Source: Eledone cirrhosa (Eukaryota). From it: a stretch of 64,000 bases of DNA. Shown in pieces: positions 3,274-37,972 of this stretch. The notes beneath the pieces were generated by a model that was not told the DNA's origin, ran no database searches, and was given only the letters and a program-made list of their open reading frames with translations. Where the stretch lies: positions 172,918,001 to 172,982,000 of the forward strand of contig OZ024743.1 in assembly GCA_964016885.1 (NCBI GenBank), read 5' to 3'. The position numbers were made by a program, and so were the translations under genes. Positions within the stretch are counted from its first letter, which is position 1, and the number at the start of each line of letters is the position of its first letter.

Positions 3274-3353
3274 ACACACGCTGATGAACCGAGGCTAACC
3301 CATTTCTTTCAACAAATTATTGGTGAAACATATCTTTGGATTTGTACGTGTGT
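3274..3353 (+). ncRNA. Type I hammerhead ribozyme
   Basis: Stem I ACACACG/CGTGTGT; core CTGATGA 3281-3287; stem II ACCGA/TTGGT; GAAA 3325-3328; stem III ACA/TGT; GUA cleavage triplet. Confidence 0.8.
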
Positions 3354-4361
3354 TATATAGTTATAGAGGTATTTATTTACGCTTTAATTTATATTTTTAA
3401 TTATCGTGTCTATAGTCTGCCTTTCATAGGTTATAGATTCCATACACTGGTGGTTTTTTTCCCTGTATTATTGATAAAGCACTGTATATCTCTCCCTGTT
3501 GTGTTACCTTTTCAACATATTGTATTTTAAAGAGCAAATCAAATACATTATTTACAGGGAATAGCGAAGGCCTATGCGTCCGTTAATTTATCGTTATATA
3601 TATACATATATATATATATACACATATATATATATATACACATATATATATATATACACATATATATATATATACACATATATATATATATACACATATA
3701 TATATATATATACACATATATATATATATATATATACACATATATATATATATATATACACATATATATATATATATACACATATATATATATACACATA
3801 TATATATATACACACATATATATATATACACACATATATATATATACACACATATATATATATACACATATATATATATATACACATATATATATATACA
3901 CACATATATAAATATACACACATATATAAATATACACACATATATAAATATATACACATATATAAATATATACACACATATATATACACACATATATATA
4001 TATATACACATATATATATATACACATATATAAATATATATACACATATATATACACACATATATATATATATACACATATATATATATACACATATATA
4101 TATATACACACATATATATATACACACATATATATATACACATATATATATACACATATATATATACACATATATATATATATACACACATATATATATA
4201 TATACACATATATATATATATATACACATATATATATATATACACATATATATATACACATATATATATACACATATATATATACACATATATATACACA
4301 CACACATATATACACATATATATATACACATATTTATATACATATACATATATATATATAT

Positions 4362-5075
4362 ATTATGAAGAGAGAAGAAACATTTAGATATAATTAGTAA
4401 TAAAATGTATCATACCTAAACTGCTCCTAAATTCCTCGACTACGTAGTTTCGTGGCATAAACAAAAACAATATATCAAAGATATAGAGTCCTTGCGAGGT
4501 CTGCCAACTTATCAAGAGGATACCTCATTTTACTAGTCTCAAGAACGCGTCTACACGACGTGAGAAAGAATCCCAAAAGGCGGAGGGGGAGATAGTCACG
4601 CGATATAACGGTCGAGAAACAGAGCTAAGCCTCTTATAACCACGAAGAAAATACCACGGAGGCGGAGGGGGTATTCATATCGAGGCCGTAGAAGAGGTAG
4701 TGAAGAAGGCGAGAAGTATGAGTAATGGAAGCTTTCCAGTTGTCCCCACACTTCAAAGATTGCTCGACCAGAGGGAGTTATTAATATATTTAGAAACACA
4801 CAGATACATGCGGACACACACATATATACATGAATGCATCCGCACCCAACTGTGAGTTAAGGGTGCCAACTTCACCGATGTTGCTCAATGAATGACTGGG
4901 ACAGACCAATTCAGTTTGAACCAGACTGAACCAGTATCAGAGTTAAAAATACATTATGAAGAGAGAAGAAACATTTAGATATAATTAGTAATAAAATGTA
5001 TCATACCTAAACTGCTCCTAAATTCCTCGACTACGTAGTTTCGTGGCATAAACAAAAACAATATATCAAAGATAT
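4362..5075 (-). mobile_element. Non-coding hammerhead-bearing element (retrozyme or Penelope pLTR-like) with ~120-bp terminal direct repeat
   Basis: 4362-4485 is repeated at 4953-5075 (period 591). It is flanked by (TA)n on both sides and has no ORF with homology. Confidence 0.72.
4433..4520 (-). ncRNA. Type I hammerhead ribozyme, U3-A8 core variant
   Basis: Minus strand reads TCCTC-TTGATAA-GTTGGCA...TGCCAC-GAAA-CTACGTAG-TC-GAGGA. Stem III is palindromic and the site is GUC. Confidence 0.8.
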
Positions 5076-5090
5076 ATATATATATATACA

Positions 5091-5152
5091 TGGGCGGTGC
5101 CCCAGCATGGCCTCAGCCGGATGGCTGAAACAGGTAAAAGAGTAAAAGAGTA
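5091..5152 (+). mobile_element. SINE 3' fragment with GTAAAAGA tail repeats
   Basis: GGCGGTGCCCCAGCATGGC...GAAACAGGTAAAAGAGTAAAAGAG. A related opposite-strand sequence lies at about 50265-50313. Confidence 0.55.
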
Positions 5153-7457
5153 TATATATATATACATATATAGACACATATATATATACACATATATATA
5201 CATATATATATATATATATATATACATATATATACATACATAAACATATATATATATACATATATACACATACATAAACATATATATATATACATATATA
5301 CATACATATATAAACATATATATATATACATATATAAACATATATATATATACATATATACACATACATATATATATATATATACATATACATATACATA
5401 TATATATATACATATACGTCTATATACATATACATATATACATATATATATATATACATATATATATATATACATATATATATATACATATATATATATA
5501 CATATATATATATACATACATATATATATACATATATATATATATACATATATATATATACATACATATATATACATACATATATATACATACATATATA
5601 TACATATATATATACATATATATATATACATATATATATATACATATATATATATACATATATACATATATATATATATATATATACATATATATATATA
5701 CATATATATATACATATATATATATATACATATATATATATATACATATATACATATATATATATATACATATATATATATATACATATATATATATATA
5801 TACATATATACATATATATATATACATATACACATATATATATATACATATATATATATATACATATATATACATATATATATACATATATATATATATA
5901 TACATATATATATATACATATATATACATATATATATATATACATATATATATATACATATATATATATACATATATATACATATATATATATACATATA
6001 TATATATACATATATATATATACATATATATATATACATATATATATATACATATATATATATACATATATATACATATATATACATATATATATATATA
6101 CATATATATATATACATATATATACATATATATATATACATATATATACATACATATATATACATACATATATATACATATATATATATACATATATATA
6201 CATATATATATACATATACATACATACATATATATACATACATATATATACATATATATATATACATATATATACATATATATATACATATACATATATA
6301 TATATATATATATATATATATACATATATATACATATATATATATACATATATATACATATATATATACATATATATTCATATATATATATATATACATA
6401 TATATTCATATATATATATATATATACATATATATTCATATATATATATATATATATATACATATATATATACATATATATATATATATATATATATACA
6501 TATATATATATATATATATATATATATATATACATATATATATATATATATATATATATATATACATATATATATATATATACATATATATATATATATA
6601 TACATATATATACATATATATATATACATATATATACATATATATATACATATATATTCATATATATATATATATACATATATATTCATATATATATATA
6701 TATATATACATATATATATACATATATATATATATATATATATATACATATATATATATATATATATATACATATATATATATATATACATATATATACA
6801 TATATATATATATACATATATATACATATACATATATATACATATACATATATATATATATACGTATATATATATATACATATATATATATACATATATA
6901 TACATATATACATATATATACATATATATATATATATACATATATATATATATACATATATATATATACATATATATATATAAATATATATATATACATA
7001 TATATATATATACATATATATATATATATATACATATATATATATATATATACATATATATATATATATATACATATATATATATATATATACATATATA
7101 TATATATATACATATATATATACATATATATATATATATATACATATATATATATATACATATATATATATATATATACATATATATATACATATATATA
7201 TACATATATATATATATATATATACATATATATATATATATATATATATACATATATATATATATATATACATATATATATATATATACATATATATATA
7301 TATATACATATATACATATATATATACATATATATATATATATATACATATATACATATATATATACATATATATATATATATACATATATACATATATA
7401 TATACATATATATATATATATATATATATATATATATATATACATATATATATATAT

Positions 7458-36500: not shown

Positions 36501-36724
36501 AGTAGTAGTGTGTATTAGGGACTCGTAAAACCTATCCTTAAGTTCGTCTGGCAGCCCCGATTGGGGTGCGTAAGCTGATATTATTGTGGTAATTGTCTTA
36601 TTCAGGACTAGTCTGAGTTTAATGATTCTTGCATTTGCCCTGTACACTGAGATTACTTTATCTACCCACTTGTCAGCTAATAGTATACCTACACCACCCA
36701 TCCCATCGTCATTTCCCACCCAGA
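33581..36724 (-). mobile_element. RTE LINE, 5'-truncated, second subfamily (APE C-terminus, RT, 3' UTR, GAT tail)
   Basis: 629-aa ORF 34830..36719 plus frameshifted downstream ORFs. YADD motif near 34810 and (CAT)n at 33581. Confidence 0.95.
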
Positions 36725-36737
36725 ATAATAATAATAA

Positions 36738-37836
36738 TGAATGGCTTGTGAGTTATATACAAGCCATGTATAAAGAAACAATCAGCAAGGTTAGAATTAT
36801 CAACAAATATAGTGAAGAATTTAGCGTAAAAGTTGGTGTTCATCAGGGCTCTGTCCTTAGCCCCCTCCTATTTATTATTGCCCTTCAGGCCATAACAGGA
36901 GTTCAAGACCGGCTGCCCATGGGAACTTCTCTATGCAGATGATCTAACGCTCATAGCTGAATCAATGGCTGAACTAGAGAAGAAATTCCAAACATGGAAG
37001 TTCAGAGAACTTATACCACTATTGGCCGCTAAAGGTTTCTCTATAAAAATGAAAGGCAGACTGTATGATGCCTATATACGAACAGCAATGTTACATGGCA
37101 GTGAGACATGGGCATTGTGTGCAGAGGACCTGCACAGATTGGAGAGGAATGAAGCATGCATGCTCCGTTGGATGTGTAATACTAATATACAAGAACGGCA
37201 AACCATAAATGAACTAAGTGAGAAATTAGGACTAAGAGGGATCAGATGCTGTTTACTCGAGAGAAGACTACGTTGGTATGCTCACGTGATGCACATGAAA
37301 GACGACAGATGTATAAAAAAGTGCAGGGCGATCAAAATTGATGGAAGTTACGGAGTAGGTAGACCCCAAAAAACCTGGGACGATTTGATAAATTCCAACC
37401 TTACACACTTACACCTCTCTAAGACAATGTCACTAGACTGAGATCTTTGGCGCTACGCCTTGCCTATGTACAAAGCGAAACCTACAGTCAGTAGGCACCT
37501 CTTAACCAAATATACACTCCTCCCACCAACACCACCCTTTCTCTGTAAAGTTATATTGGTACCAAAACATCCAGTCCAAAATGAATGAGGTTGTGTAGGT
37601 GTCACGACAAAAAAACACAGTCCACGCTGTAATGTGGCCGTGTAGGTAACACGGTAAAATCCTCCCAGTTCACATTGTAAACGTGGTTGGTATTAGGAAG
37701 GGCATCCAGCCATAGAGAACCTGCCAGACAGTCCTATATGGGCGAGACAAGGTCACCCGACCAATCTTGCTTCAAGTGAGACAATTCCCGTCTAAACCGA
37801 TGTTTGCGTGGAAGATAGATGTTAAACGATGATGAT
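36738..37836 (+). mobile_element. RTE LINE 3' fragment with internal deletion, head-to-head with the previous copy
   Basis: Reads GVHQGSVLSPLLF, YADD, RRLRWYAHV. The Cys-rich segment is missing (FQTWK joins FRELIP). An (AAT)n junction lies at 36724-36738. Confidence 0.92.
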
Positions 37837-37919
37837 ATATGTATATATATATATATATATATATAAAATAAAATGTGTAAGTCAAACATGTTAAAATTGG
37901 CTTCGTTTATTCTAATTCT

Positions 37920-37972
37920 CTGCTATATATATTTCAGTGACAGCCATTATTGGCTGTGACCTCATCAGGCAG
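37920..37972 (-). ncRNA. Type I hammerhead ribozyme, same family as 33083-33137
   Basis: Minus strand reads CTGC-CTGATGA-GGTCACAGCCA(ATAA)TGGCTGTCACT-GAAA-TATATA-TA-GCAG. Flanks 37865-38090 are homologous to 33033-33255. Confidence 0.85.

Follow-up and report, generated by a model that had tools for sequence, protein, structure and literature searches.

The reverse transcriptases (RTs) of Penelope-like elements (PLEs) are the closest relatives of the telomerase RT. Elements of the Hydra clade of PLEs carry canonical hammerhead ribozymes and almost all of them insert into (TA)n, a preference that is a published property of the clade and was attributed to the endonuclease linker (Craig et al. 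2021, PMC8557442); the link between hammerheads, PLEs and (TA)n is thus already in the literature. A tail at one PLE end (PMC8557442, Figure 2 legend) and two RT start sites (PMC11167929) are also known, and Penelope families are listed for Octopus vulgaris in PMC13282606, the available part of which does not mention ribozymes. How the PLE RT chooses its internal start sites, and which enzyme moves the animal retrozymes, are posed as open questions in the literature compared. Here, we analyzed a 64,000-nucleotide stretch of the Eledone cirrhosa genome (assembly GCA_964016885.1, contig OZ024743.1, positions 172,918,001 to 172,982,000; hereafter, the window), for which a cluster of ten hammerheads had been proposed from the sequence alone (the original prediction). 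We consider it probable that the window holds the hammerhead 3' ends of five coding PLE families and three non-coding families, joined to TA at one of two fixed ends, and that a conserved bulged hairpin beside both ends recruits the Hydra-clade RT, which would also copy the two hairpin-bearing retrozymes (F1 and F2).

The hammerheads were searched with a type I descriptor that included a C3-G8 or U3-A8 core and stems I-III, and the scores were compared with those of 40 local shuffles. All ten proposed motifs were recovered by the relaxed descriptor at their positions and strands, and five of them by a stricter version. The window gave 12 matches with a score of at least 9 (shuffle mean 1.4, maximum 4) and 8 with a score of at least 14 (shuffle mean 0.18, maximum 1), which confirms that the ten motifs are real and far above chance. 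Two extra matches, at 26385 and 26403, lie inside a PLE open reading frame (ORF) and look spurious. According to the descriptor and the folds, the core boxes, stems I-III and the NUH site are present in the ten motifs. Stem III is palindromic (dimer type) in eight of them; the hammerhead at 3274 has a long stem III, the one at 4433 a U3-A8 core, and those at 11745 and 12845 have weak stem II bases. An Rfam scan of the window showed no hammerhead family among the 150 matches listed of 802, these being TA-repeat noise. As proposed, the run from the cleavage site to (TA)n is short, measuring 248, 75, ~300, 51, 55, 119, 129, 45, 54 and 58 nt in positional order (the ~300 nt of the motif at 8052 were counted past an internal TA-like stretch).

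The ten motifs correspond to eight families at the nucleotide level (F1 to F8). The eight unrelated families of the original prediction therefore stand for the nucleotide sequences, but four of them (F4, F5, F7 and F8) are related at the protein level. DNA searches with the seven families other than F7 produced 40-151 matches each; 30 loci per family were examined, and longer flanks were then read. Since the flanks of F4, F5 and F8 are Hydra 3' ends and F6 is a Neptune/Nematis-type end, seven of the ten motifs and five of the eight families represent truncated 3' ends of PLEs that encode RT and GIY-YIG domains (four Hydra-clade families, F4, F5, F7 and F8, and F6), and the proposal of mostly non-coding elements is not supported. 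F1, F2 and F3 are non-coding tandem units of 540, 591 and 467 bp, with one type I hammerhead per unit and a longest ATG ORF of 34, 75 and 22 aa, respectively. The features of the window are as follows (strand in parentheses; a dot, no strand):

3007..21169 (.): degenerate (TA)n tract array, TACA-type on the + strand, target of several insertions
3144..3599 (+): F1 copy, 5'-truncated, of the 540-bp non-coding tandem unit, with the long end; a deletion has removed its short-end hairpin
3274..3353 (+): F1 type I hammerhead with a long stem III, predicted cleavage after 3346
4358..5076 (-): F2, 1.2 units of the 591-bp non-coding tandem unit, short end at the left
4433..4520 (-): F2 hammerhead, U3-A8 core, palindromic stem III
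4762..4778 (-): F2, bulged hairpin located 5 nt past the long end
4883..4943 (-): F2, bulged hairpin located 5 nt past the short end
7459..8391 (+): F3, inverted insertion of the 467-bp non-coding tandem unit, both ends long, without the twin hairpin
8052..8096 (+): F3 hammerhead, palindromic stem III
11702..12074 (-): F4, 3' end of a Hydra-clade PLE, short end, hammerhead at 11745-11808
12801..13482 (-): F5, 3' end of a Hydra-clade PLE with a long 3' untranslated region (UTR), short end at the left and an inverted long-end piece at the right, hammerhead at 12845-12906
21158..21581 (-): F6, Neptune/Nematis-type PLE, 3' end interrupted by the gap, with its hammerhead at 21276-21314
21582..21781 (.): assembly gap of 200 N, where the TA polarity flips
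22103..33037 (.): degenerate (TA)n tract array, TGTA-type on the + strand
25034..28517 (-): F7, inverted 5'-truncated Hydra-clade PLE, long end at the left and short end at the right, hammerheads at 25155-25225 (-) and 28410-28480 (+)
25088..25112 (-): F7 short-end hairpin inside the tail, with one substitution in this copy
26421..27501 (-): F7 ORF remnant (C-terminal part of the RT, CxCx5C linker, GIY-YIG), frameshifted in this copy
33034..33254 (-): F8, 3' end of a Hydra-clade PLE, short end, hammerhead at 33083-33137
37866..38092 (-): older F8 copy, ~73% identical to locus L279, hammerhead at 37920-37972

The 5' end of the F1 copy (3055-3166) consists of a 25-bp duplication in inverted orientation, its arms separated by a TA run.

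Judging from protein motifs, ORF layout, hammerhead and (TA)n insertion, F4, F5, F7 and F8 are assigned to the Hydra clade, and F6 to the Neptune/Nematis type. The four Hydra families have a single ORF with the RT followed by a C-terminal GIY-YIG domain, DKT instead of DKG, a CxCx5C linker, and CxxC and CxH without CCHH; all of them showed a canonical hammerhead and insertion into (TA)n. F4 was recovered as a 740-aa open frame in locus L277 (with NNC at the first cysteine), F5 as an ORF in locus L268, and F8 is known from the broken copy L279. The N-terminal RWK position reads RWK in F8, RWR in F4 and RWT in F7, and the N-terminus of F5 is missing from the recovered sequence. The aligned ORFs of F4, F5 and F8 are 41-52% identical to that of F7, whose endonuclease region (125 aa) was found with 100% identity at 150 of 150 scored places in the genome, many of them in intact 821-aa frames. 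F6 has DKG, GxKF, a CX4CxxC linker (CX2-5CxxC class) and a CCHH-type GIY-YIG, and matches Pfam RVT_1 and GIY-YIG; a Pfam search with three Hydra ORFs gave neither an RT nor a GIY-YIG match, and the GIY-YIG match of the F7 piece in the window was weak. A protein search retrieved 63 relatives, the best with 33-40% identity and one named match, to Argonauta; a metagenome search with the F7 protein gave 133 pattern matches, none of which was confirmed. Naiad/Chlamys PLEs were ruled out, given that these have an N-terminal endonuclease and lack a canonical hammerhead, whereas here the endonuclease is C-terminal and the hammerhead is present.

In all eight families, two classes of 3' end follow the cleavage site. 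The short and long ends lie, respectively, 178 and 266 nt past this site in F1, 80 and 245 in F2, 234 and 302 in F3, 51 and 146 in F4, 55 and 150 in F5, 125 and ~170-184 in F6, 46 and 134 in F7, and 56 and 156 in F8; element ends thus fall 45-300 nt beyond the predicted cleavage site, and arrays run on through many such sites, which leaves the proposed ribozyme processing of the elements putative. Among 378 unique terminal ends, 356 belong to the short or long class and 323 of the 356 join TA, a count possibly biased because the DNA queries reached the TA junction; for F7, whose loci were chosen by protein instead, 96 of 102 ends join TA. Many of the remaining short or long ends, chiefly of F6, meet TA in a shifted phase, or meet (CT)n/(TCTA)n instead. 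At L202-L230, all of them F6 loci, the long end is often followed by (TCTA)n or (CT)n in place of (TA)n, as if a short TATC word had been reiterated. All junctions end in a short TA-like sequence, and in outside-run contigs TA loose ends are present at both predicted F2 ends, 4784 and 4949.

The 85 scorable inverted insertions comprised 78 long-short, one long-long, one short-short and five with another end (12 edge rows were dropped, one pair was entered twice, and the sequence of the long-long case shows a short end). This pairing is known qualitatively as the PLE 'tail'. A single inverted F3 insertion at G000:C1:268645600-268655000 (L300, L360), built of ~21 nearly identical units, pairs a long end with a short one. 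Within one insertion, the units and the two arms differ less among themselves than from other loci (in F7, 3/9,940 and 26/34,093 differences, compared with 0.62%), and in most arrays one haplotype is present in all units and both arms, usually with common private variants. At L343, L357, L116 and L342, unit-specific variants are common to both arms with a differing register, pointing to a mixed multimer as template or to gene conversion at a later time. Alternatively, F1-F3 could be satellites spread by DNA-level recombination and not by retrotransposition. Some arrays are indeed long (~21 units), and a few look locally re-expanded (L352, L359), but the copies are dispersed on many contigs and have fixed short and long ends at TA, with 5'-truncated inverted arms like those of the coding PLEs; this common end signature largely refutes the satellite explanation, to which we give almost no credence.

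Just 3' of each end we observed a hairpin of the form R-Y-T-C-N, variable stem-loop, N'-T-H-G-A-R-Y, in which a two-base bulge on the 3' side separates a four-pair stem from an upper stem. It was located 3-8 nt from the junction at 10 of 10 junctions of F1, F2, F4, F7 and F8, and 2 nt from the short end of F5 (the sole F5 end scored); it was found at none of the two F3 and none of the two F6 junctions examined. Inspected by eye, the six published Hydra consensi (PMC8557442, supplement), which include coral and sea-cucumber elements, showed the hairpin clearly in three (twice in Hydra-1_Ajap, once in Hydra-2_Ajap and once in Hydra-2_Amil) and approximately in the other three. In other families (76 clusters in 1.76 Mb of fetched DNA), it was detected at 11 of 18 mappable junctions over a background of 2.0-2.5% per 20-nt window, a non-blind count since the pattern was relaxed after the held-out sequences had been viewed; about 6-7 of the 18 fit the earlier pattern by eye. 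Three stem positions covary among 23 hairpin instances (A-T/G-C; C-G/T-A; C-G/T-A/A-T), with 64 of 69 Watson-Crick pairs compared with a shuffled mean of 40.5, and none of 20,000 shuffles reached 64, although these instances were picked for having the motif and belong to related families. No description of the twin hairpin common to Hydra PLEs and retrozymes F1 and F2 was found in the literature searched, which covered neither Repbase reports nor subscription journals; the supplementary data of Frangieh 2024 and of the 2026 preprint could bear on it.

With family identity, TA junctions, the two ends and their pairing, and the position and covariation of the hairpin observed directly, the following course can be proposed. 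The GIY-YIG domain would nick both (TA)n strands, as Poseidon work and the patterns described here suggest, and the RT, predicted to be a dimer by analogy with Poseidon, would bind the two hairpins. The complementary DNA (cDNA) would start just 5' of each hairpin, one per strand, and the two cDNAs would together make up an inverted insertion that is tailed on one side. As both start sites would lie 45-300 nt past the cleavage site, a linear cleaved monomer could not template full copies, and the RNA template would have to be a circle or an uncleaved multimer. F1 and F2 may borrow the Hydra enzyme via the same hairpins. It is likely, from the sequence patterns, that the hairpin positions the Hydra RT twice and in this way lets retrozymes use it, and that F3 and F6, being without the hairpin, are moved by another PLE clade. 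Short hammerhead repeats at L035, L150, L181, L252 and L271 (clusters 13 and 23; a period of ~310 bp in cluster 13) have a different common sequence beside their ends, possibly the signal for a second PLE clade.

The same elements could instead use the hairpins for another step (as a promoter or 5' UTR element, in translation, in RNA stability, or in recognition of DNA by the endonuclease), with the start sites set by TA-like microhomology alone. The TA-like sequence at every junction fits this explanation, as do the location of the long-end hairpin directly upstream of the ORF in F4, F7 and F8 and the report that the D. virilis Penelope tail is needed for endonuclease recognition of DNA (cited in PMC11167929). 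However, in F1 and F2, which are non-coding, both hairpins are retained with the same spacing of 3-8 nt, and two end classes dominate even though the AT-rich units hold many other TA-like words; we therefore regard a different role as rather unlikely. Apart from the limits on the two counts given above, several points weigh against recruitment of the RT by the hairpin. Seven of the 18 held-out junctions lack it, and retrozyme F3 lacks it as well, yet has the same insertion architecture. The F3 insertion in the window is long-long, an exception to the short/long pairing (it was left out of the inverted-pair count because one arm has no ribozyme). The comparison of F1-F3 with F4-F8 showed only TA/TG simple-repeat matches, so that no specific partner PLE can be named. 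Stem II is degenerate in several hammerheads of the window, with constrained folds up to 5.4 kcal/mol above the minimum free energy, and hammerhead cleavage was dispensable in vitro for Poseidon (PMC11167929). The role of the hairpin as a binding site, the cleavage by the hammerheads and the expression of the elements are putative.

In its fuller form, recruitment by the hairpin would mean that a bulged hairpin, duplicated in Hydra PLE RNAs and conserved across phyla, docks two RTs and fixes both twin-priming start sites at (TA)n, and that unrelated non-coding retrozymes carry the same pair to hijack the enzyme, in a genome whose hammerhead load (~0.2-0.45 million) would rank among the largest recorded. 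We lean toward this version, with modest confidence. If true, it would provide a defined cis signal linking animal retrozymes to their mobilizer. Both the choice of start sites and the mobilizing enzyme are directly testable in vitro, thanks to the repeated hairpin at both start sites, the natural negative controls (F3 and F6) and the many intact ORFs of identical sequence in a very young family.

To place the window in the genome (3.0 Gb), we used a sample of 40 evenly spaced 10-kb stretches. These gave 65 raw descriptor matches (0-8 in each of five shuffles), of which 43 had a homologous second copy, in 17 families, and 22 were dropped. The extrapolated load from these 40 stretches is ~320,000 hammerheads (bootstrap 195,000-457,000). 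In the complete genome, a general hammerhead pattern matched 80,590 times (reversed control, 181), a 23-nt part of the F7 motif 23,143 times exactly (the sample predicted ~22,000), and a 24-nt part of the F2 hammerhead 7,135 times exactly, adding up to at least 110,868 motifs; the F8 pattern, which overlaps the general one, matched 7,746 times. The highest count in the animal hammerhead papers compared is that of axolotl, 126,247 motifs (PMC7229834; 10.64898/2026.07.22.740005). A (TA)5 was present within 300 nt on the 3' side of 38 of the 43 sampled motifs and on the 5' side of 27, with a background of 26%, in agreement with the proposal that the elements are Penelope-type, hammerhead-bearing and end in (TA)n genome-wide.

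In contrast, the special cluster did not survive this comparison. A community particular to this locus, made up mainly of non-coding elements that ribozymes process and that shelter in TA as a safe haven, would accommodate a motif density in 3-38 kb that is ~2-2.7 times the sampled average, and the absence of motifs from 38-64 kb. Per TA tract, however, there is no enrichment (10/74 in the window, 43-65/351 in the sample), seven of the ten motifs belong to coding families, and the motifs are spread genome-wide in the numbers given above. This explanation is largely refuted and, in our opinion, very improbable; the window is an ordinary locus, a TA-rich sample of the genome-wide load. The proposed (TA)n mega-satellite is correct in that TA tracts are present, but these are two tracts of opposite C/G polarity on either side of the 200-N gap (21582-21781). 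Between 3000 and 33000, the TA interruptions are almost purely TACA to the left of the gap and TGTA to its right, and the two flanking contigs may have been joined in opposite orientation.

A 603-bp repeat without a hammerhead, with fixed ends and (TA)n/(CATA)n flanks, was found at 9266-9868, 10460-10567 and 29260-29857, with 23 matches in the fetched loci; therefore, TA targeting in E. cirrhosa extends beyond ribozyme elements. This repeat is also relevant to the idea that the long TA tracts, besides being targeted, are synthesized by the telomerase-like PLE RT, which would copy again and again at its start site. The tracts that adjoin element ends have a median of 40-46 nt against 24 nt for sampled tracts (measured differently), and those of the window show a long one-strand polarity. 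Nevertheless, the 603-bp element sits in the same tracts, and there is no polarity relative to the element strand (34 G-rich and 35 C-rich of 187 short ends; 36 and 30 of 169 long ends), which makes synthesis by the RT very unlikely. The window also contains remnants of long interspersed nuclear elements with endonuclease and RT domains (821-2203, 34314-36752 and 58555-61531; in two, a PHD finger directly follows the RT), an inverted duplication around TA (61931-63281), and a 71-bp tandem repeat with three copies at 2308-2519 and a further partial copy at 2947-3012.

Compared with known systems, the Hydra elements described here resemble those of PMC8557442, which include the octopus member Hydra-1_Obim, in the single ORF with DKT, CxCx5C, CxxC and CxH, the 3' hammerhead, the (TA)n target, the tandem and inverted copies and the tail at one end. 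They differ in that the clade was described as having few families, generally <3 kb, and tails of 30-40 nt, whereas here there are at least four families with long 3' UTRs, tails of ~70-165 nt and one very young family with tens of thousands of copies; the twin hairpin, present here, is unmentioned in the available part of that report. The minimal metazoan PLE hammerheads (PMC4209133) share with the motifs of the window the palindromic stem III, the long stem II and the U3-A8 variant, as well as the many families per genome and the opposite-strand pairs 100-700 bp apart, but their copy numbers are in the thousands, lower than here, and F1, unlike those dimer-type hammerheads, has a long stem III and is predicted to be able to fold as a monomer. 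Like the animal non-LTR (long terminal repeat) retrozymes (Cervera & de la Pena 2020, PMC7229834; Li, Clavereau & Pollet 2026, 10.64898/2026.07.22.740005), for which PLEs were proposed as mobilizer, F1-F3 are non-coding tandem units with one type I hammerhead each, their length being 467-591 bp as compared with 170-400 nt and 51-972 bp in the respective reports. In those studies, the link to PLEs comes from co-occurrence and pLTR similarity; here, it comes from a common insertion signature and a cis hairpin without sequence homology. The Poseidon PLE of Anolis (Frangieh et al. 2024, PMC11167929) also has two start sites 3' of the hammerhead that define the tail, and cutting and extension of both strands at AT-rich DNA, a predicted dimer and a protein-binding region 3' of the start were reported for it, steps that are inferred here. 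Poseidon belongs to a different clade and starts in an AC-rich stem-loop without target homology, with no repeated motif reported in the available part of that study, whereas in the elements of E. cirrhosa each start site comes with a separate copy of one hairpin and with ends that are short and TA-like.

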